Below are positions 3,650-59,476 of a stretch of 64,000 nucleotides of DNA, piece after piece (within the stretch, counting starts at the first letter, position 1; every line of letters begins with the position of its first letter). The position numbers and the translations under genes were made by a program. Below the pieces are notes generated by a model. The model was not told where the DNA came from, ran no database searches, and saw only the letters and a list, made by a program, of their open reading frames with translations. This DNA comes from Candidatus Woesearchaeota archaeon. GTDB lineage: Archaea; Nanobdellota; Nanobdellia; Woesearchaeales; UBA525. The DNA is taken from NCBI GenBank assembly GCA_028818155.1, contig JAPPOH010000005.1, forward strand, positions 29,943 through 93,942, given 5' to 3'.

Positions 3650-5874
3650 TGTATCCTCCTCCGCACGAACCGGACAGCCAGCGCAATAGTAATTATCAGC
3701 ACAAGCACCAATTCTATCGTTGTAGCCGTTCCTTCACCACCAACTACTTGCCCAGTAATCCCGAGCAAACCCCCTTTCACATGGAGTTCCACAGTCACAA
3801 GCGAGCTGTCAGCGACAAACTCAGTTGCACCAGAACGAAGCAAACCAGGAACAGCAACGGAGAATGCGTGCCCTTTCACATCATGCACGACAAACTCAAA
3901 TACATCACGTAAAGCCCCGCGCCCCGTTCTCGTCCGATACTGCTCACCAGTCTCAAGATCGGTGAGCACAATCGGCAAGTTTGCTCGCCCTCCAATTACC
4001 TTTCCTATGATCGTTACAGGTTCGGGCACAGCAATCACCGTCGGCTCTTGTGCTTTCGGCAGCGCATCTGCAGCAATAGCAAACAACCCAAGACCTCTGA
4101 CTGAAGAAACGAGTGTCGTTCCTTCAAGAGCAGTTCGTTGTACACGCCATTTTCCATCGTATCTGTACAAGGCAACATCTTCAATTGTAATATCGTGCTC
4201 CGCAAGCCACGACTGAGGCACACGGAAGGTGACCTCTGCCTTCTCAAGCCCTTCTATCGTACCATCTAACAACAAATGAAAGTACCCGTACACAAGCTGC
4301 TCCATCGGTTCATCAACGTCCACACGCGCCAAACGGATATCATCAGGAATAGTGTTTGCTCGCACAAAGAGCGCCTGAATGAACTCATTGAAACGGTATG
4401 TTCGCTCAAAGAGTCGTTCTTCTTCTGGCGGCAGAAACTCCTCAAAGTACTCGAGAATGCCACCACCGCCACCACTTTGTACAAATTTCTTGAATGAAAC
4501 AAGCTCAGCGGCAACAGTTTGCGTGACATTCACCGTACCATCACTCACAGCAACAATGAATGAAAATTCTTGTAGCACTGCAGGCTGATAGCGTATGAAC
4601 CCCGTCTCAGAAATGGTGAGTCCTGCTGGTCCGCTCACGAGAGCCATAGTAAGAGCATCCCCATCAGGATCTACAGGCAAGAATTGATAGAGGGCTACCT
4701 GCTCTAGGACAGGCATCTCAACACGAACGGGGACGATAGGCGGATCATTTACATTCTGCACGTGCAGCGCGTACTGTTGAGTCGCTACGAGAACACCATC
4801 GGAGACATTCACTGTGATGTTGTGCACACCCACAGCACCATTTTCAGGCACCCAAACAACAGTATCGCCAACCACATGCATGCCCGTTGGCCCAGAAACA
4901 GAAACAGTCAACGGATCGTCATCATAATCGATGGCAGCGATCGTGTACGCATACTCCACATCTTCTGTCGCGTTCACAGGAGGGGTGCTCAGAATAATAG
5001 GCATATCTGGTATGTTCTGCACCGTAAGCAAGAATGTTTGCGATGTTTCCAGCACACCATCACTCAAAGTCACATTCACTACATGCTCTCCAACATCATA
5101 TGGTCCGGGCGTCCATGATAGGAGTGAGTCAACAAGCGTCATGTTTGTAGGACCAGTGAATGAGATAGAGATTGGATCACCATCCAGATCCTCAGCCACA
5201 AGCGAATACGTCCATTCCACGTCCTGATCAACTGTCGTAGTAGGGATTGAGAGGAAGGTTGGCGCGTCATTCACATTCTGTACAGTGATCGTGAACGATT
5301 GTGTTGTCGATAAATTCCCATCCGTCGCTATATACGTAACAGCATGTGTCCCAACTTGGTGTGCAGTTGGCCGCCAAGCAATAACCCCCGTCGTCATATT
5401 AACAGTCATGCCTGTAGGACCAGCAAGCAACCCATGCTGTATGGGCTGTCCGTTCCATTCGTACGTGTCCACATAATATGCGTACTGCTGATCTTGCACG
5501 GCGTCTACATTCGGCGTGGAAAGAATCACAGGAGGCAAATCAGGCAACGTCATATTCAAGAAAAGATCAACATCATGATGAATACCTGTGAGAACAACAT
5601 CTCTTGAGCTACTATGCACGGGATTCGATGCAGTAATCCTGACAGTATGCCCATTATTCCACGATAACGCAACAGAATATCTCCCAGGACCACGATCCGC
5701 ATACACAGCAAGCACAGCACTCGTATTGAGATCTTCAAACACCACAGTCACGGCACGTGGCACAGGAGTAATCCCGTCCAAAGCATAGATATGACCATCA
5801 ATACCACGAGGAGGCTCTACTGCAGCCACGGACGTCAGCGCGAGCAACGCTACCAAAAGAACGAGCCGTTTCAT
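3646..5874 (-). CDS. cell-surface protein (742 aa): signal peptide, CarboxypepD_reg-like domain, three cadherin-like repeats with VNDAP/VNDPP motifs, C-terminal TM anchor with basic tail
   Basis: Signal peptide MKRLVLLVALLALTSVAAV. Repeats QNVNDAPTF...DLDGDPISISF, QNIPDMPII...DYDDDPLTVSV and QNVNDPPIV...DPDGDALTM. C-terminus TTIELVLVLIITIALAVRFVRRRIQ. Start and stop overlap with both neighbours. Confidence 0.85.
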   Translation of the reverse strand: MKRLVLLVALLALTSVAAVEPPRGIDGHIYALDGITPVPRAVTVVFEDLNTSAVLAVYADRGPGRYSVALSWNNGHTVRITASNPVHSSSRDVVLTGIHHDVDLFLNMTLPDLPPVILSTPNVDAVQDQQYAYYVDTYEWNGQPIQHGLLAGPTGMTVNMTTGVIAWRPTAHQVGTHAVTYIATDGNLSTTQSFTITVQNVNDAPTFLSIPTTTVDQDVEWTYSLVAEDLDGDPISISFTGPTNMTLVDSLLSWTPGPYDVGEHVVNVTLSDGVLETSQTFLLTVQNIPDMPIILSTPPVNATEDVEYAYTIAAIDYDDDPLTVSVSGPTGMHVVGDTVVWVPENGAVGVHNITVNVSDGVLVATQQYALHVQNVNDPPIVPVRVEMPVLEQVALYQFLPVDPDGDALTMALVSGPAGLTISETGFIRYQPAVLQEFSFIVAVSDGTVNVTQTVAAELVSFKKFVQSGGGGGILEYFEEFLPPEEERLFERTYRFNEFIQALFVRANTIPDDIRLARVDVDEPMEQLVYGYFHLLLDGTIEGLEKAEVTFRVPQSWLAEHDITIEDVALYRYDGKWRVQRTALEGTTLVSSVRGLGLFAIAADALPKAQEPTVIAVPEPVTIIGKVIGGRANLPIVLTDLETGEQYRTRTGRGALRDVFEFVVHDVKGHAFSVAVPGLLRSGATEFVADSSLVTVELHVKGGLLGITGQVVGGEGTATTIELVLVLIITIALAVRFVRRRIQ

Positions 5875-11800: not shown

Positions 11801-14800
11801 CGACAACAACAGGAGAGAGGTATGTGGTATTCATTGTCACCGTTTGCCATGATGCACCAACATCTTCAAGATGCATCACTTCAAGTGGAGAGTACACATA
11901 CGATGCAACCTCTAACACCACACCAGGATCGGGGTTATCATAGTAGATGAAGTAATCTGTTGACGATGAGTCCGCAGCAATAGCTACCTGTGTTTTGAAC
12001 AGAACTTCTGTTGCTGTATCATTGAAAGGAGTTGCATTAATTCTGTGTAGTTCAACATTTGCGCTTCCATTCCAATAAACGATTCTGAAATCACTCCCAT
12101 TTGCGAGCATGCGATTCTGACTGACAAGTGTTTCAGTATCAACTGTATAATTGATCGTCGTGCCGGCGAGGAGTGCGAGTGTTGCGTTCGTGTTCGTGAT
12201 ATTCAACGCTCGTCGATACTTCCAATCAACATCCCACCAATCTGGCGTTATATTCCGCTCAATCAAGTGTATTTCTGACGCGTTCTCAGGATTTAATCGA
12301 CTTCCGTTGAGTGTGACATTCAACTCATTATAGGTCACATTCGTCCCATCATTAAGTGTCACATTACCAGTCACTGAAAGATTTTCTCCAGGCATAACAT
12401 ATGTTTTTGAGAGAAGTTCAGCAACAAAGAGCGTTCTGTTATCAGCGATAAACGTGTAGTTAACACTCGCATACTCGGTAACATTAAGTTGATCACCAGC
12501 AGCACAAGTCCATTTGTACGTGCCAACAGGCACTGCGACACTGAAATTGGCATCAACATTCTTTCCTGTCACATTTACCGTCTGATTTCGTGTCCACGAT
12601 CCGGAGACGTTATGATAGAGCGAAACATTCTGTATGCCATAGTCATCACTAATAGTACAGTTGAATGTGACGGTAAGATCACTCAGCACAGCGCCGTCCA
12701 CTGGAGCGACAAGCGAAATGCTCATTGGCGCATTTACTGCTGTGAATGTGTAGTTATTCGTGGCAAAAGCACCAAGATTCTCTTCATCATAGCACAGGAC
12801 GTTCCACACATAGTCCCCAGGTGTGAGAAGCGTTTCAAACGTGTGATTACTTCCTTGTGTCACGTTATACAATGTTTGATTTGATGACCAGTTCCCTGTG
12901 AAATTGCTGTACAATGAACAATTCGTCATGTTACTTGGTACGTAGTTATCTGTGACGTTAAACGTGATGTTTGGCATGAGATCTGTGCTGCTAGCATTCA
13001 ATGGAGCGACAAGTGTTACTGTTGGGGGGGTAAGATCCACAGTAGTGAAGTTATGCGTGCCTGTTGTGTTGCAATTTCCAGCAGCGTCACAACTTGTCAC
13101 GTTGAAATAGTAGAGTGTTTTTACAACTAAACCTGTAATTGTGACATTGTGCTGCACCACGAAACCAGTTTCGTGCGTAAAGATACCAAGATTTATTGTC
13201 GTATTGTGTTCCACGGACGAGTTCGCAGTTTCACTCGTGTTCCAAAGAATATCTGCTTCTGTCTCGCCAGGGAACGCGATGACATCCGTCACGTTCGGTG
13301 GTGTTACGTCAGGCGTGCTTGTTGTTGTGAAATTATGAGGTCCTGTTGTGTTGCAATTCCCTGCTTCATCACAACTTGTCACGTTATAGAAGTAGAGCGT
13401 TGCCGTTGCGAGATTACTGATTGCCACACTATGACTCGTGACAAGTGTGACGTCATGCGAGAAATTTCCTAGCGATTCATTCTCTCCATATTGTACTGTT
13501 GAATTCGAATTCTCATCTGTATCCCAGACGATAACTGCGGTGTTTGCAGTAATACTTGTGGCATTTTCACCTGAGATGTTCGGTGCAGCAGTATCCACAC
13601 GTAATGTGAAATTATTCTCTGCAAAGATTGAAACGCCAAACGAATCAGTACACTCGACATTCCAAATGAAATTCCCATCAGGTGGTGTGAGTGTGATGTT
13701 CTCTTCTGTATCATTCTGTGCGATAATCGTTGTGTTTGCAACCCACGACCCTGTGAAATTCGCATAGAGTGTACACTGCATCGTCTCGTCTTCTACATCA
13801 ACATACGTGAAGTTGAAGTCAATCGGCGTCTGGTTTGTAATCGTATCATTCACTGGCACGTTGAGTGTAACATTTTGCTCTTCATTGATCGCGTCAAGCG
13901 CTTGTATGTACCACCACGTCCTATTTCCAACGTTTTCGAGAAATGCGCTTGCAGATGATGTTCTCGTTATGCGAATTTCTAGATCACTATTTGCTGAGAG
14001 GTTGACGATACAACTTGCGAAGTTCGCTCCTTCGTAGCTGTCAGTGTTCGTTCCTTGATCTCCCCGGTTGTATCCTTGTGACCAGCAGAAGTCACTATCT
14101 GCTCCATTCACACGAAGGTTTCCTACATGTTCGAGACGAGTAGTAGCGCCTGTATCTCCAGAATCTCTGAGACTGTAAACGTTATATGCGATGCGATAGT
14201 ACCCTGCGCGCAGCACCCGAATTGTGTTGGAATCTGTTTTGTTGAAGAAGCTATCGTTCCGCTGCACAGTATCGAAGTCAAGATCAATGCCTGATGTTGT
14301 ATCAAGATCTTGTCCACCAACCTCATCTATAACCATAATGACGTTTGCATCATCATCAGGTATTTTCTCAATATGGAACCATGAGCGATTTGCAGTTGTC
14401 GCGAGGGTTGCAATACTTGCTTCTGCAGCACGCCCTGCTTGGATTTGCACATAGGCATTCTCTCCCAGTTCAACAAGCGCATCTGCTGTCACGACACCGT
14501 CGCGTGTGCTGTCAAAGCCTCGTAGATTCGTTTGCGAGTAGCCAACAGGAATTCGTGAGCCATTCACGAGAATTTCAGCAAAGGTTGCTGCACGAGTATC
14601 TGTCCCTTGTTCTGCAGCCACACCATATGTAATCCTATACAGGCCAGATTCGAGTATACTCACGTTGTTCGCATCAGTTGTAAAGTTAAAGGCACTGTCT
14701 TCCCGATCTTCAGTGTCCCACGTAAGATTTGTCCCAGCAACGACATTCATCGTCTGTCCGCCAGCTTCGTCATGCGCCATGAAGACATTTGTGATGTTTA

Positions 14801-16599: not shown

Positions 16600-16654
16600 C
16601 GTTATTTTTCGTTTGCCCACTCGGAATCCCTATAAACCATATAAGTATGGTTCT

Positions 16655-16675: not shown

Positions 16676-16692
16676 AATTTATAAATCTTCGC

Positions 16693-28000: not shown

Positions 28001-31000
28001 CTGTGAAATTGAATGTGTCTGATGCGCCAATTCTTCCAGAATCATCAGTACAGGATACTTCCCATAGGTGAAGGCTGTCATTGATGCTGGAAATTGTCGT
28101 GTTTGCTACAGATCCATTCGGGGAGTCGATGTCTCCTGCAACAAGCACACTGTCAAGAGAGACGTTACAACTGAGAGTAGGATCGATATTGTCAATCGCA
28201 GTCCAGTTGAAGAGGATCGTACTCACAGCGAATGTTGTCCCGTTCGGATGATGTGGTTGTACTGTTGGATTTGTGAAGTCAATGTAAATAGTCCGTATTT
28301 CAGAAGCTCCTCGCACAACATCATTGTCTGTGCAGTTTACCTGCCATGTATAACTACCTTCATTCAAACTTTCTAGTGTGAAATTGTTCTCAGCATTGTT
28401 CGTTATCGTTCCATCTGTTTGGTTGTTTGATCCATCGATAATGAGTTCACAGAAACCACCAGAGTCAAAATCTGCGACACTTTGTGGAGTGTAGATGAAT
28501 GTTACGTCTCCATCACTGTCACTTGCGTTGTCATCAGGGGAATTGAGAATGACATTTACATCAGGACTCACACTGAAGTTCAGCGTTTCAGATGTATTCA
28601 CAAATCCAGTATTGTCAATGCACGTAACATTCCATGAATAGTTCCCTGCTGTGAAACCTGATCCTGTCACCACAGTTGCTGTTCCATTGTCTGCTGTGGT
28701 CGTTATATTCACATCCCCGTTCACAGTGACGTTACAGTCAAGCACAGGGTCAATATTGTCGATTGCTGTAAAGTTGAAATCGACCGTCGTCACGAAGAAT
28801 GTTGCATTGTTTGCCGGAGCATTGAGTGTAACTGTAGGCGTTCCACTATCAACGTGGAATTCTCTCACAGGAGAACCAGAACCTGAGAAACCATTTGTAT
28901 CAACACAAGTCACTGTCCAGTTATGGACGCCCTCAGGAATGCCGGTCAGATTGAATTCGTTCGGATCATCTCCGTCTTGGTTTGGAATTTCCGAGCTGTT
29001 CTTCGTTTGATTGACAATGCCATCGATAATGAGTGAGCAGTTTGAGAGGCTAGATTCGACAACGGTGTAGTTGAAGCTAATATTGCCTACTGGCGTCCCA
29101 TATCCATCCACAGGTGTGGTGAGCACGACAAGTGGGGCTGCGTCATTCGTGAAGTTCAATGTGTTGCTGATTCCTGTGTTGTTATTGTCGTCATAACATG
29201 TAACGTTCCAATAATGGAATCCATCACCAATACCTGAAACTGCGCCTGTGGTGACTGATCCATTCACTGCTGTCGTTGTATTCCAGTATGTTCCTTCATC
29301 AACACTAATGTTGCAGAAGAGTAATAGATCAACATTATCTGCAACTGTGAAGTTGAATAGAATGTCATTTGATGAGTGTACAGTTCCATCCGGATCAATC
29401 GCAGTTACAACAGGATCTGTCTCGTCAATAATTAACCTGAACGGGCCATTTGTTGCATTTCCAATGTTTCCTACAGTATCTGTGCATTGCACTGTCCAGC
29501 TATAATCACCTTCACCCATGTTCTCAATAAGGAACGATTGGTTCACCATCTCAGTAATTGTTGTATTCGTTTGATTTATCTCCCCATTAAGCAACAATGA
29601 GCAGTTTGCAATGGTTGTTCCGAGATCATTCGCAGTATAGACAAACGTGATATCCGTGACATCATCAATTGTATTATTCGGCGGAGCAAGGATTGTCACT
29701 TCTGGAGGGAAGATATCACTCGCAATGCCAAAGATTGCATGATCTACTCCGAGACTATCTGGATCTGCCACTGCCCGTCCAACAGCTGAGTAGTTTCCAA
29801 AGTCTCTCCCGGATGAATTCCAGAGGTTCGTGAAGTTCCCACCCACTCCTGATTCGTTTATGTCTTGCTGTAGGTGGATTTGATGTCCTGTAAGTATAGC
29901 TTCTATTGAGCTATAGTTCGAGAGTTCAACAACGAACGTTGTTACTGTGTTTGTGTTTGAGGCTGTTTGTTTGTCGTAGGAAAGATTCGTTCCATTTGTG
30001 AGCGTTGCAATGAGCATTGCATTCGTGTATGTTGTTCCTCCTCCTGTACTCTCCCATGTACTGATGTGGAATGTTCTGTTCAGTACAACTTCGTTTATCG
30101 CGACAGAAGTGTCAGTGCTGAAGGCAGAATCATCCACTTGTGTCACTGTCCTCCTTGGCATCTCAACCATAAACCAGTCAATCATTGCAACGCCGTTTGC
30201 CCCCACAGATCGTTCAAAGCTCACACGATCACTTCCGACAAACTCAGCCCTGACGTGGTTCTCGTCTAATCCTGTGTCATTCGCAATCGTTCGACTCATA
30301 ATGATGAAACTTCGTGTGTCATTGAATGCATTGATCACAACAGTCTCTATCGTGTCACCTGCGTCCATTGTTGCTGTTCCATTTTGAACTCGTGTTCCTT
30401 CCCATGTAACAACTTGCCATGCGACATTCGATTCGGCACCCCCTGTGAGTCGCTCAAATTCGATCTGCGTACTATTTACAAAGTGTCCTCGAACAAATGC
30501 AATATTATTGAGTGAGGTACTAGTTGAGTCTCCACTGGCAGACACAACGATGAAGCTCTTTGTCACATCAACTTCAGCAATGTCCGCTGTTGTCGTTAAC
30601 GTCCCTGACGTGAGTGTGTTATTTCCTTGTTGCATCGTAATATCCTCATGCTCAATAACTTGCCACGAAATATTCGCCGCTGCCGTACCAAGGTAGCGCG
30701 AGAAGTGCAAGTGCGTACTGTTCGTAATATTTCCTGTGAATCTATTCCCATCAGGCGATGTGTCAGCAGAATTAGCTGTGAAAAGCAAGAATGAATTTGC
30801 TACTGTAACAGGTGTTGGCAGCTCCACAATGAAATCTGCCCCCGTCCCATCAACCGTTCCTCGCTGTACATTTCCACGACTGGCTACTGTTGCATTTGCT
30901 GGCGAGCCAGATGCCCCAGTGTTATTGAAGTACGCAAAGTAGCGATCTTGGTCGAACGCATTTGCTGTGATGTTCGCAGCAAAGAACACTTCACAGTAAT

Positions 31001-34000
31001 GTGTTCCATTCCCATCTACTATTGTCCGGGGTAGTTCAACGGTTACATTGTTTTTGAATTCCACAATGCGGAGCTCTGTATCACAATCAGTGTTATATCC
31101 GTCCAGATTTGAAATATTCACGAGAACAACTTCCCCATAACGAGGGCTATTTGTTGTCTCATTGAGATCAATCGCAATACGCCTTCCCCATGACGTGTTC
31201 CACCACGGAGCACCGGTTGTTGAAGCATTTGTGTAAATGATATCTGTCGTAACATTCGTATTCAATTGTGCCCATGAGGAATTGAACACTGTCACAGTGA
31301 TATTTACAATCTCTCCCTGCTGATAATTCGACTTATCAGTCACCACCGAGATGTTTACTGGCAGCGTTATGTTTACAGTAACAAATCGAGTTTCTGACGT
31401 ATTCACATTCCCAGACGCATCACTACATGTGACGTTCCACTCATGTATTCCATTCCCCAGTGTTTGCACTCTGTTAGTTAACGTGTTGTTAGGGGCATTG
31501 AAATTCAAGTTACCACTATCAACAACACCATCAATCGTTAGATTGCATGTCATATTCGCAGAAAAGTCATCAATAGGTGTGAAATTGAAGTTGATTGCTG
31601 GAATTAGTGCAGTTGTATCGTTCAGCGGCAAACTTAAGTTGATGAACGGTGGTATTCCATCAATATTTATCGTGTATGGTCCATTATACGCGGTGCCATT
31701 CTCACCCAAGTTATCTGTACAATTCACCGTCCACGTATGCACGCCCGTAGCCATGTTGTTCACAATGAAGGAGTTGTTTCCTGGCACGGTGAGTCCGGTC
31801 GTATTAGATCGGTTAACAACATCGTCAATGATGAGCGAACAATTGCCGATGCCATCTCCATCTTGTACATAGTATGTAAAGTTGACAGTATTCCCAGACT
31901 GTGTCGTCCCATTTACAGGTACTTGTAACTCAATGAATGGCGGACCTACAATCGTGAAGTTTCTTGTTTCAGAGATATTATAGTTCCCTGCTTCATCAAC
32001 ACACGTAACATTCCAGAAGTGTAACCCATCAGGCAGTGTGAGATTTCTATTTATCATGACCTCTGCACAGCCGTCAGGAGGAGGTCCAGAGACATTTCCT
32101 TCCTCGAATGCACCCCACACCATGAGTTCAGCAGCGTGTGTGTCACACGTATCTGCAGCGTCTTGTTCGCAGTAGCGGAAGTCCATGCCGCCTGCAACAA
32201 CGCTTCGGGCCCAGCGATACTGTGTGTCTTGTCCACCAGCGTCATCGTTTTGTGCCACCATAACAATGGGTGTTGTATACGCAGGTGTGAATGTTGCCGC
32301 AGTCCACGTCGAACTTGCAATAGCAGCACTACTGTTCTGGTATCCAACGATTTGTTCGTCAGGGGTGATCGCCACCCACCCAATCGTTTCTGTTGCGTCA
32401 CTCCCTGTACAATCATTCGCTATTCCCTCGTGCACACAACCAGTGAGCCCTGTCTGTGATGTTGTCGTATCAGCATCATCAAACCAGAAGCCCATCGCCA
32501 TTTCACCAGCATTTTGCGTGTATGTTTGCATCGTTCCCCACACGTGCGGTACACCACTCAGCGTTTTCCCGAAGGACATAGTTTGTTCGACGCCATTACC
32601 TTGGATGCCTGTTGACGTTCCTGCAGCGATCCAGTCATAGCCAGCGATCGCATCAACATCAATAACAACATAATGGACGTCCTCAAGTTCAGTTGTCGTG
32701 TCACACGTCGTTGCGCCATTGTCGCTGCACAAGCTGACGTTGAATCCTGTGGTTGTTACATCTTTCACGACAGCAACGAAGCCGTTATCGTCTTCGGCTG
32801 CTCCTGCGTTCTGGCTTGCAGGCGTTGCAATCACAACAGGGGTTGATGTATACGTTCTATTGTACGTGATGTATGCGAACTGGAAATCTTCAACCTGTAC
32901 CGCACCAGCTTCACCAATCGTCTCATCACAGCTTTTATCGTATGCCCGTGCAGGTGATGGGATGTTGGAATCTTCCACCACACCATTTATGGTGATGTTA
33001 CAGAGAAGCTCAGTATCAAGGTTGTCGAAAACTGTGAAGTTTAAGCTCGCCACACCTTCTGTGAATGTGATACCGTCCGTTGTGTTGAGGAGCGCGAGCG
33101 GTCCTATAGTATCAACGGTGAAGTTTCTTGTGCTGCTGCTCCCCTCAAATCCACCAAGATCAGTGCAGTTCACACTCCACAAATGCACACCATTCGAAAT
33201 ACCAGTAATGTTAAAGAAATTCGGCTGGTTTGCTGTTACGCTTGTATTTGTTTCATTTGCTACACCATCAAGAATAAGTGTACAATTACCTATTCCAATA
33301 GGATCAACCGGTGTGTAGTTGAACAGCACAGTACTTTCATTCAAGAATGCGTTCGCTGCTGGCGCATTCAGGGTGACTGTGGGGGGTCCTGTGTTCTGTG
33401 TGAAATAGAATGTTTCGGATGTAGCACTATTTCCTGCTTGATCAATACATGTAACGCTCCAATTGTGTGTTCCATCAGGCACCGAGAAGACGGTGACGTT
33501 TGCCTGTCCGCCAACATCCGCTGCGACGTTGCTCACATTAAGGATATCGTCGATCGTCAAGTTGCAGATCAGCGTTCCTGTGAAATCATCTGTGCCGTTC
33601 CAACCAAACGTTACATTCGACGTTGGTGGGCTCGTGTTGTTTCCAGGAGTATCAAGTGCAATACTTGGTGCTACGTTGTCAATTCGCACATCAATTGTTT
33701 CATTATTCTCTGCACCAAACGTATCGTTACACTCAGCAGTTAGATTGTAGAGCGCGTTCGCAGCTACTGTCGTGTCTGACGAATTGTAGAAACTCGTTGC
33801 ATTTGCCTTTAGTGTTCCTTCAGGTCCAATACCGATGGTGTCGTTATGATAGTAGTAATCACACACATCGACACCGTTATCATCTTCCGCGCTGATATTG
33901 GAGAGTTGTGTCAACCGAATATTTGGCCGCATTCGCGTCCGCACTTCAACGTAATCTGTGAAAATATCAGCACGAGCATCAATACCTGCTGCAGTTGTTT

Positions 34001-37000
34001 GGTTTCCAACGATGAGGATGTGGAGATCACCGTCATCAAGAATATCATCGACGCCTTGTAATTCGAGTTCAATGTACATATCTGCAGCTATCGTGTTGTT
34101 CGCTTCATGTATTCGAGTGTATGAGTTACTCGTGTGGTTGAATACGTAAATATAGAATGTATCTGCTGTCTGGAATGTTTGCTGTGTAACATACCCTTCG
34201 TAGAAGAAGAGGATTTCTTCTATATCGATCGGCGATTCAGTCACTTCAAATCGGAAGCTCTGATAGACGGACTCTCCAGTATCTGTTGTTGTTGTCGTCG
34301 CAAGTCGAACGTTATTCGACGTTGTGACAGATGAGTAACTCGAGGTTGATATTTCTGTTTCTCGAACGGGGGTACTTGTCGGCAGCAAACTTCCGTTTGC
34401 ACCATCATATAACGCATGTATGTTACTTGGATGCGTGATACCTGTGTATGTGTACGTGCTCACCACATCAGCAGGTTCGATAAATTCAATGAGTGGCTCA
34501 TGTGTCATTCGCTGCCACTCGAATTCAATGTACGCTCCAGGACTTGTCGCTGTGCCATCATTTTCAAAGTCACCACATCCAACATCTGTGAATGCCCGCC
34601 CTGTCCAGAGTGCACACGAGAGTGTGTCATCTTCTCCCTGATCATATACAAAGATTTCATCATTTCCAGGACTGCTCGATGTGATAACATGTCCAACATC
34701 TCCTCCGCCTGGTTGTCCAATAGGATTTCCTTCACCCCAATCACTAAACGACCATGAATTTGAGCTAATCGTGTAGAAGCCACCTTCAGGGAAGTCTTCA
34801 TTCGCATCAACCCACACATATACGATCTGGTCACCTGATTTTTCAATGGCACAGCTTGTTGAATGCAGGGCTGCTGTTCCTTCGTTCCCACCACATTCAC
34901 TTGCAGTATCTTGTACGGGTGTTTCCGAGGATAGTGCTTTCGAGAATGCACTGCCATCCCAGTAGCCACCATCACGATCAGCATCCTGATCACACGTCAT
35001 AACACCGATGTAATCGTGTGCAAACGACCCTGTCGATGGTGATTCTCCACACAAATGCACCTCTCGGGCTTCAGCACCAAGACCATCGTAGATGTTGCCA
35101 AGATGCGTCCACGCATTTGTGCTTGGCTGGAATCGCCATGCATAGAGATCGTCTGAGTTATTCCCGTATGCGAAGAGCATTTCTCCAGAATTTCCTTCCC
35201 ATGCACATGAGAACTGCTTTCTGTCATCTCCATCAGCTTCTAATGTAACGTTGATCGTATGGTTAAACACATTGTTGTCTCCATCCCACACGGTTGCGTA
35301 AATATCACCTGTTCCCGCATCATTTTGTATGCCCATGCCGATGAGGTTAGTGTCCTTTTGTGCACAAAGCTCAAGCCATCTGAAGTCGTTGTTCGGCGCT
35401 CCACTGATACTGTATGTCTGCTCTGTACTGAGATTATCTCCATTCCACAATCTGTAAGCGAAATCCCCATCAAGCCCATTTGCTGTCTCATACACGACGA
35501 GACAATCTTCACTGACGAGATCTTCACATGCGACATCGAAACTACGCTGCACATCCAAGCCCCGATTCGGCTCTACTTGTGTGATATTATGCCACACTCT
35601 GTTCACGATGTCGAATACCGCAAAATCAATAGAGTTATCGACTTCTTGAATCATAGCATAGCACTCGGGCCGCCGTTGAGCACAAACAAATCGATACCAT
35701 GAGATATTGCTTCCAAGTGCGCCAAAGATGTTTTCTTCTTCGCCAAGTACACCGGTCCAATTCCTCTGTAGCGGATTCTCTGGATCAGTGAGGTTTGCGT
35801 ACAGGAGTATTCCAACTTCACCAAACTTCGGTAGTTCAAGATCATTGAACTCTGATGGGGCGTTGACAGTGAATGCACGTTGTTCACTCGTATTCTTATT
35901 CGCACGATTATCAGTGCACGTGACATTCCACGTGTGTGCTCCGTTCGCAACTTCAACAGATCTAGTCGTTGCAGTGCCATTGGGAGAGGGGATGTTTCCG
36001 AGACGAATAGCACCATCAACGATAAGATCACACGCAAGCTCAGGATCTGTATTGTCCGTTGCAGTCCAGTTGAATGTGATCAATGAGACAGCAAAGCTTT
36101 CTGACACGAGCGGTGCGTTGAGGACGATAGTGGGCTCCTCTTCATCAACAATACAGGTGCCACCCCACTCCCCTCCGTCTTGGTAGAACCCTTTCCAGAC
36201 AAGATCCCCAGAGCTGTTTGTGAATGCTACTACAAAGGAACCCTCACAGATGCCAAAGCCAAGCTGCGTGTCGGCGCCAATCGCATCATGTAGGAGGTAT
36301 GTCGCATCAGGCTCACTTGTAATGTTGAATGGTCCTGCCACATAGCTGCCGTTATTATCGAAGACTGAGGCTTTGATGCTGTTATCTGCTCGGTCTTGCC
36401 AGACGACAGCGATATTGCTCGTCCCTTGGAACTCAACTTCTGCGGCAGCAACTCTCGTTTCAGTCCCTAAGTCAGTGTCAACTGCAGCAGAGCCGATTGT
36501 TGTGAACGTATCACCTCCAACATCAAGCACAGTGAGATTGACGTGGTTGACGGCACTGTCGAAGTACACAATACCAACGCGTTCTCCTCCAATGTGTGCA
36601 ATCGCAACCTGTCCTGTTTCACCAATATTCGTGTCAATATCAGTTATGTTGTTGATGATGCTCGCACCTGTGTTTGGAATGATTCTTGCGCTCAAGTCAT
36701 TCTGACTGTCATCGAACCATGCTGTTACGGCGCGCGTGCTGTTCGTTGTTGTACAATCGACAAGGTTCTGGAGTGTTTGTGCAGGCGCAATGTTTCCATC
36801 AATGTTGAACTCACTCACACTCAACGTGCCATCATTCGTGTAGATCTCTCCATCATAGTCGTTATTCAAATCTTCTCCATACGCGACAATGAACTCTGCA
36901 CCGTACTGGCAGACGCCCATGTCTGTGAAGATATTTACATCTGCGTCAACCTGTGTTTGTCCCACCACCGCAGAGCCATTTTCGTGATAGATGTAGAAGT

Positions 37001-40000
37001 CAACATCTTCTTCAGGACCATCATTCACGATGACAACGAAATGTGTTTCATTGATCGGTGCCGCTGCGATGCGACTGGAATCGTCAACAGTTGTATCGAT
37101 ATCAACTTCTGGCACGAGGAGTGTTCCATTTGCGTCCCAAACTTCAAATGATGTGTGATTACTATCAACATCAACCCACGTCACAATAATCGTTGTGTTA
37201 TCGAGTGCCGCGAGTGCTACATCTTGTCCCTGGCTGGCATCGACGTATCCGGTAGGCACATCAACTGTGACGAACCGCGTTTCACTCGTGTTTACGTTGC
37301 CAAATGTATCTTGACACGTGACGTTCCAAATATACAAGCCATCTGACAGAATGAGCGATTTGTTTGCCGCTACACCTGCGCTCGATCCAATTGTGGCTTC
37401 CACATTGCCATTTATGGTCAAGTTACAACTAAGGAACACTGCCTGATCGTCATCAGCTGTCCAATTGAAATCAGTGAGTGATGTGGGTACTGTCGAATCG
37501 TTCGCTGGGGAATTTAGTGTGATGTTTGGTGCGATGTCATCAAACCCACAGAAGCCATCCCATGTACTTCCATTCACGAGGAAGAGTTTTCGCTCACCAA
37601 CGGCAGAGCTATTCGTGAATGATACAACGAATGTCCCATTGCAGAGCCCAGCTTCGTGCTGGGAATTGTATCCTGCAACACCGTGCAATCTGTACGTATC
37701 ATTGATATTTGTGCTAATGTTAAAGGCCGGTGTGATGAGCGTTCCTGTTCTGTTGTACACAACAGCCTCAATGACATCTTCTCCTTGATCATACCATGTC
37801 AGCACGAACATGCTTTCATTGTCTGCTTCAATTTCTGCAACATCTAATCGCACTTGCGAAGTAACAGACGTGTCAATGTTAACAGGGCCAACAGCCGCTG
37901 AGATGGAATCTGCGGATGTATCGACGACAAGCATTTTCACAGTGCTCTCTGGAGAATCATAATAGAACATTGCTATGTCTTCGTCTCGTAACCCTGCGAG
38001 TGCCATCTGTGATGTGCCACCAACATCAAGATCTGCTCCTGATGGCCCTGCAACGATAGATCCTGTTTCATCGTAGAGTGCTGCTGTGAGGTCGTCTGTC
38101 GCGTCATCAAACCAGCTCACGAACCACCTCGTGTCGCTCACCGGCACAACGGAAACGAGATTCTGTAAGTTTTGGTCAGGCGCGACGTTATCGTCAATAT
38201 CGAATTCAGTAGCTTCAACACTGCCGTTGAGATAGTGGATCATGCCGTGAAGATCATCGCCGCTCGTGTCATCGACCCACGCAGAAACGATTCGATTTTG
38301 AATGTATGCTGATGACACGTCAACATTTACGCCCGCATCCGTATCAAGAATGAATGGCGCACCGATCGTACCTTGTTCAAATGCGCCCCAGTACACGAGC
38401 TCACCTGTGTGCGTGTCACAATCATCATTCCCGTCTTGTTCACAGTAGCGGAAGTCCATGCCACCAGCGACAACATTTCGGGCCCACGGATATTGTGGAT
38501 CTTGTCCACCGTCATCATCGTTTTGTGTCACCATGACAATAGGGTCTGCAAAGGTCGGTGTGAATGTTGCTGCTGTCCAGTCAGAGTTGCTGATGTCGGC
38601 ACTTCCTGATTGGAAGCCACCTATTTTGTGATTTCCCGTGTCAATCGCAATCCAACCAACAGTTTCAGTGGAGTCTCCTCCTGTACAGGTATCTCCTGTG
38701 TCTTCATGGACACAGCCAAGAACAGTCGTATGACTTGCGTTTGTATCCGCTCCCTCAATCCATGTGTTCATCGCCATTTCACCAGCAGTTTGCGTGTATG
38801 TTTGTGGTGTCGCGAAGACAAAGGGTGTTCCTGAGAGTGTTTTGCCAAAGGAAACGGCATTATCTGCCCCATTGTGATTTATCCCAGCGGTTGTTCCTGC
38901 AGCGATCCAGTCATATGCTGTGATCGCATCTGGGTCAACGACGACGTAGTGGACCGTTTCAAGATCTGTGTCAGTGTCACACGTTGTTGCGGCGTTGTCT
39001 CGACAGAGACTGACGTTGAATCCTGTGCTCGTTACATCTTTTACGACAGGAACGAAGCCGTTATTGTCATCGGCTGCTGCTGCGTTTTGGCTTGCAGGTG
39101 TTGCAATCACAACAGGCGCATTCGAGTATGTGTTTGCGAACGTGATGTATTGGAAATTAAAGTCTTCAACTTGTGTGCTCCCTGCTTCGCCTATTGGTCG
39201 GTAGGTGTGGTGTCCGCTTTTATTGTAGACGTAGATGTAGTTTGTATCATCATCTGCGTCATAGAGATTGATCAAGAAGTGTGTCGTGTTGATTGTCGCT
39301 GCATCAATGCGTCCCCAGTTTGACGATCCATCTTGCACATCGGTATCAATGTCAATTGCTCCATACAGATCTGTCTCATTTGTGTGTATAATTCTGAAAC
39401 TTGCATCCTGACTTGTCTCTTCTATGTATGCAACAACGTAGAGATCTTCATCTAGTGCTGTGACGTCTGATTCGACGACAGGCTCATCGGAAAACTCTGG
39501 GTCGATTGCCAAGTACCATGGTCGTGCTTCGGTAATTGTTGTTGTGTCGTACGCGACTTTCGATTGTCCAAGTTGGTAGAGTTCTGGGGTGATTTTCGGG
39601 ATTGTTGCTGTGTAGCTCACTGTGGAGCCGTTGCTGAGGTTATTCCACGTAAGGAAAATGTTCGTCGTATCTTGTGTTTGCGTTGCTGTGCTTGTGATGT
39701 TTGTGAAGTTGATGGGCAAGACTTCTGTATAGTTGAACGCACCGCTATGGTTGAATGACGTGACTGTTACAGACACAGCGAGCAGCTCTTTGAATGGATC
39801 TATCGTCACGGGCGCATTCCTGATGATGTCGAACGGATAGTGTTCCTGCACGAGGAAGAAGGAGAGCATGCTCTGGTTCACATTCACATCGTGTGCTTCC
39901 ACGAAGAGATCGTATGTTCCTTCTTGTTCTGGTGTGTATATCGCTTCGTACACTCCATCAGATGTCTCTATGATCGTTGTGATATTCGTCGTTATGTTAT

Positions 40001-41267
40001 TCGGGTCTGTGACAAGCAGTTGTATATCTGCGTTACTCACGAGGAATCCGTTGTTGTCGAGCACAACCATGACGATTTCTGCTGTCTCATTCGGGCGATA
40101 GATGGGCTTTCTTGTGTTGACTGTGGCAACGCCTGTCTCTGCGTAGCCAGGATCGCCAGGGTAGAGGAGAATATCGTACTGTTCTCCTGGCCTGAGGTAC
40201 TTGTGCAATTCCCATGTGCCGAAGCATGTTTGTGTGGTGAAGTTCCATTTTGCACACTTCCAGAGTTGGCTTCCTTGTGCCGTACTCGTCGCTGTTGCAT
40301 TACTGAAGTTCAAATTGTCAAGGTTAATCGCGTATGCTTTGAGTACAGGATCGCCGTTGATCTCAACGCTTTCTTTCGGGAGATCATCAATGCCAATTTC
40401 AATCGTTTCCTGCGGTACACAGTCGTGAATATCTAGCTTTTGTACTGCTCTACTGTCTGGCGTGACGTGGACTTCGTATGAGTTGTTGCTGTTTTTCTCA
40501 AACTTGACAGCTGCGTATCGTCCTTGCCCTTCATTATTCACAACGCCGAAGGTAAAGAGGCCATGCTCATTTTCAAACTCTTGTGCCGGAACGTCAACAA
40601 TGAGTGCAGGTTCTGGTTCTTCTATCTCATCACCGGGCTCTGGTTCGTCAGGTGTTGGTTGTGGAAGGAGTGCTGGTTGGACGGTGAATGCATGTCTCCC
40701 TACGACGGCACCATTCTCGGAGATGATGATTTCGTGCAAGCCTGGATACTTTGGCACGAACGGTGAATCTCGCCATGGGCCGAAGTATTTGAACAAGCCA
40801 CCAGGGCCGTTGATGATGATCTTGATATCTTGTGTTGGGGGTGGTGTGATGGATATGTGGACGTTTTGCTCTGCTCTCGGTTCTTCGCTGATGGTGATTG
40901 TCCTTGTCTTATTCGTCTCGTTCGCTTCTTGGACGGTGAATATGTCTTGGTGCACAACCTGTCCTGAGCTGTCGATGAGTTGGACGGTGTATTCGCCCGG
41001 TGTTTTCGGCACGAATGGAACAACCTCCCCTGGTTCATCTAGGAGCCTGTACTTTGCTTCCGGCGCGAAGATCATGATACGTGAGCTGTCGTTTGTTGTG
41101 TTGATGAGGACGGGTTCTCCAACGTTGTAGAGTGTTTTGTCTGTGATTGCTATTGTGAGTGGAAGGATTACTAAGAGTGCTACAATGAAGGCGTACTTGG
41201 CTGTGGTGGATTGTCCTCTAGCCATGTTTCCACCTCTTGATGATCGTTGGATAGAATGTGTGTCCAT
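25047..41267 (-). CDS. giant secreted/anchored multi-domain protein (5406 aa; about 5392 aa if it starts at the alternative ATG 41225). It has an N-terminal signal anchor, two copies of the ~270-aa Cys-rich cassette domain, at least two CARDB-like domains, many Ig-like and FN3-like repeats, and the conserved C-terminal domain
   Basis: Uninterrupted 16.2-kb ORF. N-terminal hydrophobic segment AKYAFIVALLVILPLTIAITD. The alternative start 41225 overlaps the upstream regulator's stop by 8 nt (CATGGCTAG). The C-terminal ILWDTSDGGSA...GIYDYEIKIPATL matches the 2785-aa protein. Confidence 0.9.
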   Translation of the reverse strand: MDTHSIQRSSRGGNMARGQSTTAKYAFIVALLVILPLTIAITDKTLYNVGEPVLINTTNDSSRIMIFAPEAKYRLLDEPGEVVPFVPKTPGEYTVQLIDSSGQVVHQDIFTVQEANETNKTRTITISEEPRAEQNVHISITPPPTQDIKIIINGPGGLFKYFGPWRDSPFVPKYPGLHEIIISENGAVVGRHAFTVQPALLPQPTPDEPEPGDEIEEPEPALIVDVPAQEFENEHGLFTFGVVNNEGQGRYAAVKFEKNSNNSYEVHVTPDSRAVQKLDIHDCVPQETIEIGIDDLPKESVEINGDPVLKAYAINLDNLNFSNATATSTAQGSQLWKCAKWNFTTQTCFGTWELHKYLRPGEQYDILLYPGDPGYAETGVATVNTRKPIYRPNETAEIVMVVLDNNGFLVSNADIQLLVTDPNNITTNITTIIETSDGVYEAIYTPEQEGTYDLFVEAHDVNVNQSMLSFFLVQEHYPFDIIRNAPVTIDPFKELLAVSVTVTSFNHSGAFNYTEVLPINFTNITSTATQTQDTTNIFLTWNNLSNGSTVSYTATIPKITPELYQLGQSKVAYDTTTITEARPWYLAIDPEFSDEPVVESDVTALDEDLYVVAYIEETSQDASFRIIHTNETDLYGAIDIDTDVQDGSSNWGRIDAATINTTHFLINLYDADDDTNYIYVYNKSGHHTYRPIGEAGSTQVEDFNFQYITFANTYSNAPVVIATPASQNAAAADDNNGFVPVVKDVTSTGFNVSLCRDNAATTCDTDTDLETVHYVVVDPDAITAYDWIAAGTTAGINHNGADNAVSFGKTLSGTPFVFATPQTYTQTAGEMAMNTWIEGADTNASHTTVLGCVHEDTGDTCTGGDSTETVGWIAIDTGNHKIGGFQSGSADISNSDWTAATFTPTFADPIVMVTQNDDDGGQDPQYPWARNVVAGGMDFRYCEQDGNDDCDTHTGELVYWGAFEQGTIGAPFILDTDAGVNVDVSSAYIQNRIVSAWVDDTSGDDLHGMIHYLNGSVEATEFDIDDNVAPDQNLQNLVSVVPVSDTRWFVSWFDDATDDLTAALYDETGSIVAGPSGADLDVGGTSQMALAGLRDEDIAMFYYDSPESTVKMLVVDTSADSISAAVGPVNIDTSVTSQVRLDVAEIEADNESMFVLTWYDQGEDVIEAVVYNRTGTLITPAFNISTNINDTYRLHGVAGYNSQHEAGLCNGTFVVSFTNSSAVGERKLFLVNGSTWDGFCGFDDIAPNITLNSPANDSTVPTSLTDFNWTADDDQAVFLSCNLTINGNVEATIGSSAGVAANKSLILSDGLYIWNVTCQDTFGNVNTSETRFVTVDVPTGYVDASQGQDVALAALDNTTIIVTWVDVDSNHTSFEVWDANGTLLVPEVDIDTTVDDSSRIAAAPINETHFVVIVNDGPEEDVDFYIYHENGSAVVGQTQVDADVNIFTDMGVCQYGAEFIVAYGEDLNNDYDGEIYTNDGTLSVSEFNIDGNIAPAQTLQNLVDCTTTNSTRAVTAWFDDSQNDLSARIIPNTGASIINNITDIDTNIGETGQVAIAHIGGERVGIVYFDSAVNHVNLTVLDVGGDTFTTIGSAAVDTDLGTETRVAAAEVEFQGTSNIAVVWQDRADNSIKASVFDNNGSYVAGPFNITSEPDATYLLHDAIGADTQLGFGICEGSFVVAFTNSSGDLVWKGFYQDGGEWGGTCIVDEEEPTIVLNAPLVSESFAVSLITFNWTATDNTDPELACDLIVDGAIRLGNIPSPNGTATTRSVEVANGAHTWNVTCTDNRANKNTSEQRAFTVNAPSEFNDLELPKFGEVGILLYANLTDPENPLQRNWTGVLGEEENIFGALGSNISWYRFVCAQRRPECYAMIQEVDNSIDFAVFDIVNRVWHNITQVEPNRGLDVQRSFDVACEDLVSEDCLVVYETANGLDGDFAYRLWNGDNLSTEQTYSISGAPNNDFRWLELCAQKDTNLIGMGIQNDAGTGDIYATVWDGDNNVFNHTINVTLEADGDDRKQFSCAWEGNSGEMLFAYGNNSDDLYAWRFQPSTNAWTHLGNIYDGLGAEAREVHLCGESPSTGSFAHDYIGVMTCDQDADRDGGYWDGSAFSKALSSETPVQDTASECGGNEGTAALHSTSCAIEKSGDQIVYVWVDANEDFPEGGFYTISSNSWSFSDWGEGNPIGQPGGGDVGHVITSSSPGNDEIFVYDQGEDDTLSCALWTGRAFTDVGCGDFENDGTATSPGAYIEFEWQRMTHEPLIEFIEPADVVSTYTYTGITHPSNIHALYDGANGSLLPTSTPVRETEISTSSYSSVTTSNNVRLATTTTTDTGESVYQSFRFEVTESPIDIEEILFFYEGYVTQQTFQTADTFYIYVFNHTSNSYTRIHEANNTIAADMYIELELQGVDDILDDGDLHILIVGNQTTAAGIDARADIFTDYVEVRTRMRPNIRLTQLSNISAEDDNGVDVCDYYYHNDTIGIGPEGTLKANATSFYNSSDTTVAANALYNLTAECNDTFGAENNETIDVRIDNVAPSIALDTPGNNTSPPTSNVTFGWNGTDDFTGTLICNLTIDDILNVSNVAADVGGQANVTVFSVPDGTHNWSVTCIDQAGNSATSETFYFTQNTGPPTVTLNAPAANAFLNESTVLFNYTPVDPIGIGNCTLILDGVANETNTSVTANQPNFFNITGISNGVHLWSVNCTDLGGFEGSSSTRNFTVDTIGPLALLNTTDGITFTEGVASLNFTVFDNLDTELLCNITINGVVEDSNIPSPARAYDKSCDETIGEAGAVQVEDFQFAYITYNRTYTSTPVVIATPASQNAGAAEDDNGFVAVVKDVTTTGFNVSLCSDNGATTCDTTTELEDVHYVVIDVDAIAGYDWIAAGTSTGIQGNGVEQTMSFGKTLSGVPHVWGTMQTYTQNAGEMAMGFWFDDADTTTSQTGLTGCVHEGIANDCTGSDATETIGWVAITPDEQIVGYQNSSAAIASSTWTAATFTPAYTTPIVMVAQNDDAGGQDTQYRWARSVVAGGMDFRYCEQDAADTCDTHAAELMVWGAFEEGNVSGPPPDGCAEVMINRNLTLPDGLHFWNVTCVDEAGNYNISETRNFTIVGPPFIELQVPVNGTTQSGNTVNFTYYVQDGDGIGNCSLIIDDVVNRSNTTGLTVPGNNSFIVNNMATGVHTWTVNCTDNLGENGTAYNGPYTINIDGIPPFINLSLPLNDTTALIPAINFNFTPIDDFSANMTCNLTIDGVVDSGNLNFNAPNNTLTNRVQTLGNGIHEWNVTCSDASGNVNTSETRFVTVNITLPVNISVVTDKSNYQQGEIVNITVTVFNSSWAQLNTNVTTDIIYTNASTTGAPWWNTSWGRRIAIDLNETTNSPRYGEVVLVNISNLDGYNTDCDTELRIVEFKNNVTVELPRTIVDGNGTHYCEVFFAANITANAFDQDRYFAYFNNTGASGSPANATVASRGNVQRGTVDGTGADFIVELPTPVTVANSFLLFTANSADTSPDGNRFTGNITNSTHLHFSRYLGTAAANISWQVIEHEDITMQQGNNTLTSGTLTTTADIAEVDVTKSFIVVSASGDSTSTSLNNIAFVRGHFVNSTQIEFERLTGGAESNVAWQVVTWEGTRVQNGTATMDAGDTIETVVINAFNDTRSFIIMSRTIANDTGLDENHVRAEFVGSDRVSFERSVGANGVAMIDWFMVEMPRRTVTQVDDSAFSTDTSVAINEVVLNRTFHISTWESTGGGTTYTNAMLIATLTNGTNLSYDKQTASNTNTVTTFVVELSNYSSIEAILTGHQIHLQQDINESGVGGNFTNLWNSSGRDFGNYSAVGRAVADPDSLGVDHAIFGIASDIFPPEVTILAPPNNTIDDVTDITFVYTANDLGTTIANCSLLLNGEINQTNTTITEMVNQSFLIENMGEGDYSWTVQCTDTVGNIGNATNGPFRLIIDETDPVVTAIDPDGTVHSSNDILFNFTVADNVDLLLFCNISVDEGTYWNTTTAVNGSVTTGAVSGIGDGFHYWNVTCYDDNNNTGISNTLNFTNDAAPLVVLTTPVDGYGTPVGNISFNYTVVESSLSNCSLIIDGIVNQTKNSSEIPNQDGDDPNEFNLTGIPEGVHNWTVTCVDTNGFSGSGSPVREFHVDSGTPTVTLNAPANNATFFVTTVDFNFTAIDNIDPVLDCNVTVNGDVNITTTADNGTATVVTGSGFTAGNYSWNVTCIDNTGFVNTSETLNFSVSPDVNVILNSPDDNASDSDGDVTFIYTPQSVADFDSGGFCELIIDGSNNQTDGTITNNAENNFTLESLNEGSYTWQVNCTDNDVVRGASEIRTIYIDFTNPTVQPHHPNGTTFAVSTILFNWTAIDNIDPTLSCNVSLDSVLVAGDIDSPNGSVANTTISSINDSLHLWEVSCTDDSGRIGASDTFNFTVNEPPKVVLDAPSNGTRAAVTSFMLNYTPTDNSENIGNCTLIVNGLNNQTNTTVSHNVTNDFNLTALAHGEYNWTVSCIDLSSNEGINDTNYTFYVDLFGPTIILNLPLDLETLNSNNVTFNWTPIDHPGSTVNCSLFVTNASNNITVTGITGTANTDFNTTVAGLADGSHDWNVTCSDDLGNTNNSLTQSFVINQPDLVLNETSRINFNETNPDLGETINITANVSNIGGTGANDVLVQFWDGLPSAGGTLIGNDTQTVAFNSSTIFSVSWNITFGYHEIFVSADPDGLIGELVENNNNASRNISLLFANITQPLENNITADTTPQIDFNISDFTGGNLSYVIYVDDTANGQVGVVQDLQNNSLNITALADGVHTIIVQANDTLQRFKNSTPLTIRIDTTAPNVTFLTQNDSWYAVTNVTIEFNITDVFSANLNYTFYLDGTLNHTNTTTNNTRNTVNLSNLAEGQHTVTVEAEDELGNIDNSTVLTFYVDLTPPVPNTTTANNTWFNTLTPGIDFNITDNLDPILNYTIYVDGVANTNGTSTNGVEATATLNAITEGNHTIIVQALDEAGHVVNDTEIVIYVDVTPPNVTLLTPLNDTNLSSTSVTLNFTVSDNLGTPLICNLTLDDVVVSVNVSVTNGSFHNFTVNDLNSGYHFWNATCIDNATNAGISETWQFFVELSDLEINAGNITFSNSTPIENQTVEVNATVFNIGNLNATNITVQFFLGDPDLGGVQINGNATIASLGIGENTTVSMNHSAVIGLNRIYVLVDPPLATNGSIAEENESNNEAFRDFNVGHFEIFAGTSGNELKISDASIISAFKWNQTNVTGSNVFVADTDSSLIFTSLQAIGRNTTNGTDTGNDDFEEIDQQLNATSLNDSVNLTWTSGGAPVASITLQSFKRTITDIPVVNSTNTSSFVTGILWDTSDGGSAYNTSQDIVFVTIMNESQAGQYGIYDYEIKIPATLRDYILGGGSVSFYTELR
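32090..32930. repeat. copy B of ~820-bp intragenic repeat cassette (within 5406-aa gene)
   Basis: Same alignment as copy A. The antisense ORF 32698..33318 peptide MSHVVAPLSLHKLTLNPVVVTSFTTATKPL... parallels MSVSHVVAALSRQRLTLNPVLVTSFTTGTKPL... at 38968. Confidence 0.8.
38370..39210. repeat. copy C of ~820-bp intragenic repeat cassette (within 5406-aa gene, ~5.4 kb from copy B)
   Basis: Same alignment as copies A and B. Confidence 0.8.
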
Positions 41268-59447: not shown

Positions 59448-59476
59448 CTTCTATTTTTTTTCTTTTTCTTTTTACT
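59448..59476. terminator. bidirectional T/A-rich tract between convergent genes
   Basis: TAACTTCTATTTTTTTTCTTTTTCTTTTTACT. Confidence 0.35.

Follow-up and report, generated by a model that had tools for sequence, protein, structure and literature searches.

Archaea of the DPANN lineages are mostly uncultured, and their machinery for cell-cell contact is poorly understood. N-glycoproteins and the aglB gene have been reported from cultured DPANN (bioRxiv 10.1101/2023.10.27.564410; bioRxiv 10.64898/2026.06.04.730037), a distinct AglB clade of DPANN and Euryarchaeota comes from work cited in PMC8993221, and in a Nanobdellales strain grown in culture the glycan was found to weigh ~1.2 kDa (bioRxiv 10.64898/2026.06.04.730037). 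Surface proteins have been described from Nanobdella aerobiophila, which carries aglB in its genome, that have immunoglobulin (Ig)-like folds, in some cases with lectin-like domains, and 13-52 predicted glycosylation sites in about 900-1,300 amino acids (aa) (bioRxiv 10.1101/2023.10.27.564410). For the S-layer of the Sulfolobales one site per 30-40 residues is considered high (PMC12153357), and the S-layer protein SlaA has 31 consensus sites (PMC2948927). Here we analysed 64,000 nucleotides of a Candidatus Woesearchaeota archaeon, a tiny DPANN member of symbiotic type (GenBank assembly GCA_028818155.1, contig JAPPOH010000005.1, positions 29,943 to 93,942 of the forward strand), referred to as the window, in which an operon of five minus-strand genes, here called C, B, A, D and E, encodes three giant secreted proteins with far more N-glycosylation sequons than their composition predicts. 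Based on sequence analysis, the giants are probably sugar-coated surface fibres. They are an extreme, well-replicated example of a known phenomenon, and the general picture is unchanged by them, since heavy N-glycosylation of Ig-fold surface proteins has already been described in DPANN and other archaea.

The interval 5871-41267 was fully occupied by three uninterrupted minus-strand open reading frames (ORFs), together 11,727 aa. Gene C (25047-41267), the first gene of the operon, encodes 5406 aa with 269 sequons and 20 Ig-like modules; gene B (16693-25050) encodes 2785 aa with 138 sequons and ten modules; and gene A (5871-16481) encodes 3536 aa with 216 sequons (6.1 per 100 aa) and 14 modules. 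The three giants are mutually paralogous at 25-40% identity, with masses of 303-583 kDa each and 1.27 MDa summed. Counting sequons as N[^P][ST] and deriving the expected number from residue shuffling, we found 623 sequons where 214 were expected, which corresponds to 5.3 per 100 aa or on average one per 19 aa. The expected numbers were 68 for A, 52 for B and 94 for C, giving observed/expected ratios (O/E) of 3.2, 2.6 and 2.9 with z-scores of 20, 13 and 21, respectively. The sixteen other ORFs of the window had 20 sequons in 5,215 aa (0.38 per 100 aa, O/E about 0.95), which places the giants ~14-fold above their local background. The extreme density that an earlier note had read from this DNA is therefore real, and it passed the comparison with shuffled sequence on which that note had staked its claim. 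The extent and spacing given there need correction, however. Its ~13,000 aa are reached only when D and E, which lie outside the interval, are added to the giants (13,044 aa and 677 sequons for all five proteins), and its one sequon per 8-12 residues applies to dense stretches and not to the mean. At least 16 sequons, or one per 12.5 aa or better, were present in 41%, 10% and 25% of the 200-aa segments of A, B and C, respectively, and the densest stretch had 15 sequons in 120 aa. The span that had been quoted as holding about a dozen (A residues 928-1053; 13323-13700, minus strand) has ten in 126 aa.

The excess was specific to the motif. Among all 400 residue pairs of the form a-x-b, N-x-T (3.0 times expectation) and N-x-S (2.4 times) ranked first and second and the next pair reached 1.7 times, while the reversed [ST]-x-N was found at ~1.1 times and N-x-N at 0.48 times its expectation. 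Pro was nearly absent from the middle position, with one NP[ST] in 624 (0.16%) compared with seven [ST]PN in 251 (2.8%; Fisher p = 9e-4) and with nine cases in 529 (1.7%; p = 0.007) after an Asn that is not followed by S/T. Asp or Glu at position -2 was as frequent as in the background (12.4% vs 12.6%), and this lack of preference agrees with sequons of the archaeal/eukaryotic type rather than with those of bacterial PglB; the extended PglB sequon (D/E-x-N-x-S/T) was ruled out as -2 is not enriched. The excess is thus far above composition and bears the recognition fingerprint of an oligosaccharyltransferase (OST), namely exclusion of Pro, Thr over Ser, and directionality. Together with their export signal, sequons that exclude Pro and have no requirement for D/E at -2 give the giants two features of archaeal AglB-type N-glycoproteins. 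The flanks of the sequons in A, B and C were also enriched in Tyr at -2 (1.9 times) and in Phe, Trp and His at -1 (about two times), which recalls the 'aromatic sequon' of eukaryotic glycoproteins and may simply reflect a beta-strand context.

An iterated hidden Markov model identified a 94-aa Ig-like module, which has two conserved Cys, in 46 copies: 14 in A, ten in B, 20 in C and two in E. The AlphaFold2 (AF2) model of a representative copy (C residues 2625-2719; 33111-33395, minus strand), which has eight sequons, six of them inside strands, was a nine-strand beta-sandwich with a predicted local distance difference test score (pLDDT) of 97.5. Its nearest folds in the PDB, as found with Foldseek, were the CelAly B1 domain (TM-score 0.86), the FN3-like modules of CbhA, SiiE BIg and PKD. 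Pfam Big_13 matched with 31.8-117 bits, above its threshold of 27, and CARDB with 55 bits, so that a beta-sandwich fold is combined with membership of a Bacterial Ig-like family. Searches of PDB sequences with A, B and an alignment of the H-type-lectin block returned only one marginal Fn3-like match and one chance match.

The modules carry on average 7.1 sequons, with a range of 3-11. The earlier note had proposed that the sequons sit at conserved positions of each module, and hot columns do exist: NC[ST] at column 38, NFT at columns 61 and 92, and others, NVT types among the motifs, at columns 14, 26, 44, 48 and 51. However, these columns are filled in only 33-59% of the 46 copies, and across the set sequons occur in more than 45 different columns. 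In the model, in which 58% of the residues are strand, 72% of the module sequon Asn fell on strand columns. A hydrophobic or aromatic residue or Cys occupied position +1 in 68% of the strand sequons versus 27% of the loop sequons, and around sequons in general the positions -1, +1 and +3 were enriched in hydrophobic and aromatic residues. A strand placement with a hydrophobic +1 would leave Asn and Thr facing the solvent and x buried, and sites inside strands suggest that glycan transfer precedes the folding of the module and takes place on the unfolded chain. Outside the modules the enrichment was equal (O/E 2.7-3.1). The non-Ig domains, ~2,600 aa including the lectin blocks, came close to expectation, with 30 sequons observed vs 24.7 expected (O/E 1.2), a contrast that is indicative only because these islands were picked post hoc.

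The number of sequons was better preserved than their positions. In alignments of the paralogues 43% of the sequon Asn were aligned with another sequon Asn (58% within three residues), compared with 39% for other Asn and 38% identity overall, and the aligned partners held similar numbers of sequons. An orthologous operon was found in the Woesearchaeota metagenome-assembled genome (MAG) GCA_003694805.1 (locus L083), in which two giants, a He_PIG anchor protein and a 607-aa protein follow each other. Relative to these orthologues, 60% of the sequons of A were conserved in position at 51% identity, and 73% of those of E at 47% identity. The sites are somewhat above average in conservation, yet roughly 40-55% of them turn over while the density stays constant.

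Further relatives were collected by means of an N-terminal all-beta domain common to the three giants (A residues 195-325, 15507-15899; B residues 203-335, 24046-24444; C residues 265-396, 40080-40475; all minus strand). This domain of ~110 aa, which is common to the homologues found, was modelled by AF2 with a fair pLDDT of 86; it had no Pfam match, and Foldseek gave no significant match to a PDB fold. Its motif in A is YAIDP..NFT..T....G..LWKC..W.F..Q.C.G.W....ITPG..Y......DPG., and that of A, B and C together is YAIDP..NFT.ATVT..A.G..L.KC..WNF..Q.C.G.W....ITPG..Y.F.L.P.DPGF.E. When the GTDB species representatives were scanned with a six-sequence alignment of the domain, 183 stretches were confirmed and 79 loci kept, which are labelled Woese-, Pace-, Nano-, Aenigmat-, Micr- or Altiarchaeota or carry automatic labels. 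The domain recurs in the giant proteins of many DPANN genomes, sometimes in several copies each. In other DPANN genomes, 66 ORFs with the domain (145,796 aa) contained 7,215 sequons, with a median of 4.9 per 100 aa and an O/E of 2.67, and the neighbouring ORFs of <1,000 aa at those loci had about 1.0 per 100 aa. In a set of 1.84 billion proteins, the profile of the Ig-like module matched 42,105 cluster representatives, and the best 147 of these had a median of 5.7 sequons per 100 aa. In the Bacteroidota protein P0148, which has 49 matches to the module profile and 8.4% Asn, the O/E was 1.28 and seven NP[ST] were present, so not depleted; this homologue without an excess indicates that the fold itself does not impose sequons. 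As a side observation, many GTDB genomes with this family (L008, L015, L023, L027, L029, L030, L080 and others) are automatically labelled 'uncultured Methanosarcinales archaeon', a label that looks wrong for genomes of such size and content, one of them being a 774-kb 'chromosome' (OZ246410.1).

From these data we propose, with a probability of roughly 0.65, that the operon encodes giants which form an AglB-dependent glycan coat maintained by selection. In the proposed order of events the chains would leave the cell via the Sec pathway, and AglB would N-glycosylate the N-x-S/T sites while the chains are still unfolded. The giants would then form strings of disulfide-containing Ig-like beta-sandwich modules with non-Ig domains interspersed, giving a glycan-coated stalk with lectin and other heads that are largely bare. 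Assuming a glycan of ~1.2 kDa, about 620 glycans at full occupancy would add ~750 kDa to the 1,273 kDa polypeptide and account for roughly a third of the total. The thousands of glycans suggested earlier are an overstatement of roughly three- to five-fold, as there are about 620-680 potential sites. The assembly would presumably be held at the cell surface via D. A plausible function of the coat is to protect so long and extended a protein from proteases and aggregation and to keep it in solution, and the bare domains could bind, for example, glycans of a host cell. A coat, as opposed to incidental glycosylation, was also how the earlier note had read the locus, and it appears the best reading because of the excess beyond composition, the OST fingerprint, the density kept despite turnover and the signal peptides; such a coat would not be uniform, however, given the ~2,600 aa of non-Ig sequence near expectation.

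If the sequons were a chance by-product of an N/T/S-rich composition, the giants would at least offer the right composition, with 10% Asn and 12% Thr. However, shuffling of this very composition yields about a third of the sequons present, and neither the same residues in reversed order nor N-x-N show a comparable excess. The extra Asn is itself explained by the sequons: 623 of the 1,153 Asn (54%) are part of one, and as non-sequon Asn make up 4.5% of the residues in the giants vs 3.6% in the other ORFs, the Asn richness is essentially the sequons. We regard this explanation as practically eliminated. A subtler one is that the sequons were inherited from a single sequon-bearing ancestral Ig module and favoured by a structural preference for alternating polar and hydrophobic residues along strands, with no glycosylation involved. 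The hot columns shared by 46 homologous modules agree with such a history, as do the 72% of module sequons in strands and the hydrophobic residues that alternate around them at -1, +1 and +3. Yet alternation should enrich T-x-N, T-x-T and N-x-N to the same extent, which is not what was found; Pro is shunned specifically before S/T; sequence outside the modules is equally enriched in sequons; 57% of the sequons are off the aligned position in paralogues with the density retained; and the Bacteroidota protein has the same module family with little excess. It is consequently a highly improbable account of the data.

Several observations weigh against an AglB-dependent coat. AglB, a flippase or a clear agl glycosyltransferase was found neither in the window, nor in the 10-kb flanks of RadA and gene E (~19 kb of contig), nor in 1.2 Mb of related loci, which were scanned for WW[DE][YWFN]G, a negative that does not bear on the genome as a whole. 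A sequon need not be used either: no glycan was detected on the S-layer protein of Nitrosopumilus piranensis, which has eight sequons, and one of six predicted sites is unoccupied in Nitrososphaera viennensis (PMC12153357). The list of the best 150 module-profile matches is biased towards sequons because the profile itself contains them, and was not used as a control, which leaves one named protein as the bacterial control. D is linked to the giants by gene order, the sequon-poor 'heads' were chosen post hoc, and among these the H-lectin assignment is the only one to pass a curated threshold. The first two points also favour the possibility that the sequons are true OST targets in evolutionary terms that are now used sparsely or conditionally, so that the proteins would carry tens and not hundreds of glycans and no continuous coat. 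DPANN have small genomes and a limited biosynthetic capacity, which would agree with sparse use. On the other hand, the density is kept in at least 66 divergent relatives despite turnover and NP[ST] has been purged, which suggests ongoing selection on many sites, and cultured Nanobdellati glycosylate their surface proteins and archaellins (bioRxiv 10.64898/2026.06.04.730037); we consider sparse use unlikely, but a serious possibility. It could further be argued that these proteins make up the cell's S-layer, as a SlaA/SlaB-like pair with accessories and ordinary S-layer glycosylation, and are not fibrous adhesins. An S-layer pair proposed for Nanobdella consists of an Ig-fold protein that has many predicted sites but no anchor and of a partner anchored by a transmembrane segment (bioRxiv 10.1101/2023.10.27.564410), and D, which is anchored, and E, which is unanchored and the densest, could fill these roles. 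However, three paralogues of 2.8-5.4 kaa with lectin, C1q-like and CARDB domains resemble modular adhesins more than lattice proteins, apart from the marginal Fn3-like match there is no sequence relative with a solved structure, and the density is two to three times the level of one site per 30-40 residues in the Sulfolobales S-layer (PMC12153357). Pfam and NCBIfam gave no match to S-layer families, and no S-layer relative was found in the PDB. An S-layer seems improbable to us, and glycan-coated fibres remain the reading that we prefer.

In these fibres, the non-Ig domains are the candidate heads. Gene C has two H-type-lectin blocks, block 1 at 38355-39194 (minus strand, residues 692-971; two sequons, O/E 0.6) and block 2 at 32067-32918 (minus strand, residues 2784-3067; four sequons), which are 77% and 70% identical, respectively, to the single block of B (20509-21342, minus strand, residues 1237-1514; five sequons, O/E 1.2). 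The isolated block of B reached 35.9 bits with Pfam H_lectin (PF09458) against a threshold of 24 bits, and the three copies scored 19.7-22.7 bits in whole-protein scans. The block had no match among PDB sequences and was absent from all 30 homologues retrieved. The identity of 70-77% over ~280 aa stands out from the 25-40% of the rest of B and C, and points to a recent duplication, gene conversion or a much stronger constraint. In A a BclA_C/C1q-like domain was found, whereas B and C have CARDB and a conserved C-terminal domain that is the same in both. This domain of ~220 aa, with the motif '..YDYEI.VP..L..Y......V.F..E..', is shared by B (approximately 16693-17350), C (approximately 25047-25710) and several homologues; it ends exactly at the C-terminus and is preceded by CARDB. 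As B, C and the homologues have no membrane anchor, it could be an attachment or sorting domain. BLASTP gave no alignment of the C-terminus of E with this domain.

All five proteins of the operon have a hydrophobic N-terminal signal peptide, which in A, B and C is the only hydrophobic segment. Gene D (3646-5874, minus strand) encodes a 742-aa surface protein with He_PIG/Big_9 Ig-like domains and a PGF-pre-PGF domain, and has the sole C-terminal transmembrane anchor of the operon (about 3649-3735), with basic residues after the helix; its orthologue occupies the same position in L083. D has only ten sequons, and yet this is about three times the expectation from its composition; its Asn content is low (3.2%). 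Its sparse sequons contrast sharply with its operon partners, and the L083 orthologue (20800-23172) also has ten, at an O/E of 1.4. Gene E (1922-3649, minus strand) encodes a secreted protein of 575 aa with two modules and no anchor, and its 44 sequons (7.7 per 100 aa, O/E 3.6) are the highest density of the five proteins.

Some further observations concern the surroundings of the operon. In NCBI, A is identical to OXR66_03685 and B is 100% identical to OXR66_03695, both hypothetical proteins of 'Candidatus Woesearchaeota archaeon', and a scan of A, B and E with NCBIfam gave no match. The window lies within the metagenomic scaffold ENA ERZ23496502, ROBB21-1 scaffold_7 (214,583 bp), which belongs to a MAG, and the neighbouring genes are archaeal (Orc1/Cdc6, TrmB, Lrp/AsnC, glutamate dehydrogenase, RPA, RadA, PolD and PCNA). 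No match was found when the window was scanned for Rfam families and tRNAs. Directly upstream of C is a 159-aa ORF (41218-41697, minus strand), unassigned in function, that overlaps the first ATG of C by 50 nt; the start of C may be Met15 (MARGQSTTAKY...), just ahead of the hydrophobic signal segment. The sole hint related to glycosylation within the window was a 309-aa ORF (59475-60404, minus strand) with a GT2-like N-terminus below threshold (Pfam E = 1.3e-4, 22.4 vs 23.3 bits) and a TPR-like C-terminus. The RadA gene is directly preceded by a free-standing ORF for a LAGLIDADG_2 homing endonuclease (60665-61480 and 61777-62793). The many plus-strand ORFs opposite the giants had been ascribed to reverse-strand composition. 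This has weak support, as codon-aligned antisense stops were found at 2.0-2.5 per 100 codons in the giants vs 3.2 in other genes; however, the stop density was similar in other frames, and most of these ORFs are explained by the long uninterrupted coding sequence.

The findings provide a simple quantitative signature for a large class of giant DPANN surface proteins, in which sequons are ~3 times as frequent as expected, NP[ST] is purged and more than half of the Asn are found in sequons. If the proposed coat is real, about a third of the fibre mass would be glycan, glycosylation would precede folding, and the unglycosylated lectin-type domains would be the place to seek host-binding activity. 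Far more speculatively, the N-terminal all-beta domain could mark a very large, as yet undescribed DPANN family of megadalton surface fibres that has its sequon density as the defining adaptation, with a continually renewed glycan shield and bare lectin heads for host glycans serving as a device in a symbiont-host arms race rather than as generic envelope glycosylation; we hold this to be unlikely, though worth stating. A full-text search of the literature returned no description of this family or its sequon statistics, which is weak evidence of absence.

The surface proteins described from Nanobdella resemble the giants in that they come from DPANN, carry signal peptides and several Ig-like folds, and have a large number of predicted sites, up to about four per 100 aa. 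They are, however, 3-5 times shorter and mostly anchored at the C-terminus, in a comparison made by description, and the giants are somewhat denser in sequons (5-6 per 100 aa, 7.1 per 94-aa module), with the excess over composition and the turnover of sites shown statistically. SlaA of the Sulfolobales is likewise a beta-rich extracellular protein of an archaeon, whose high sequon density is regarded as adaptive (PMC2948927; PMC12153357). In contrast to the giants it forms a lattice, belongs to another lineage and has no detectable homology, and the giants are about twice as dense over 11.7 kaa. The 'SPEARE'-type giants of the Nanohaloarchaeota are also DPANN proteins of multiple thousand aa; they combine tandem Ig/fibronectin-like domains with a Sec signal and have been suggested to act in host contact. 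Each of them, however, is a single protein of 8,880-9,409 aa that is bound to the membrane and contains a VirB4/TraG-like ATPase domain (PMC10266531). Pfam scans of A, B and C found no ATPase domain and the three have no anchor, which sets them apart from the SPEARE type. With the Ig-repeat adhesins of bacteria (Salmonella SiiE BIg; Big_13/Big_7; Bacteroidota P0148) the giants have the fold of the module and the tandem architecture in common, whereas the Bacteroidota homologue is without a sequon excess and the systems for secretion and anchoring differ. The maintenance of the sites is similar to the glycan shield of HIV-1 gp120 (PMC2920574), in which sequons are strongly selected and roughly constant in number while their positions shift; since fold, organism and glycosylation machinery differ, gp120 serves here as an analogy only.

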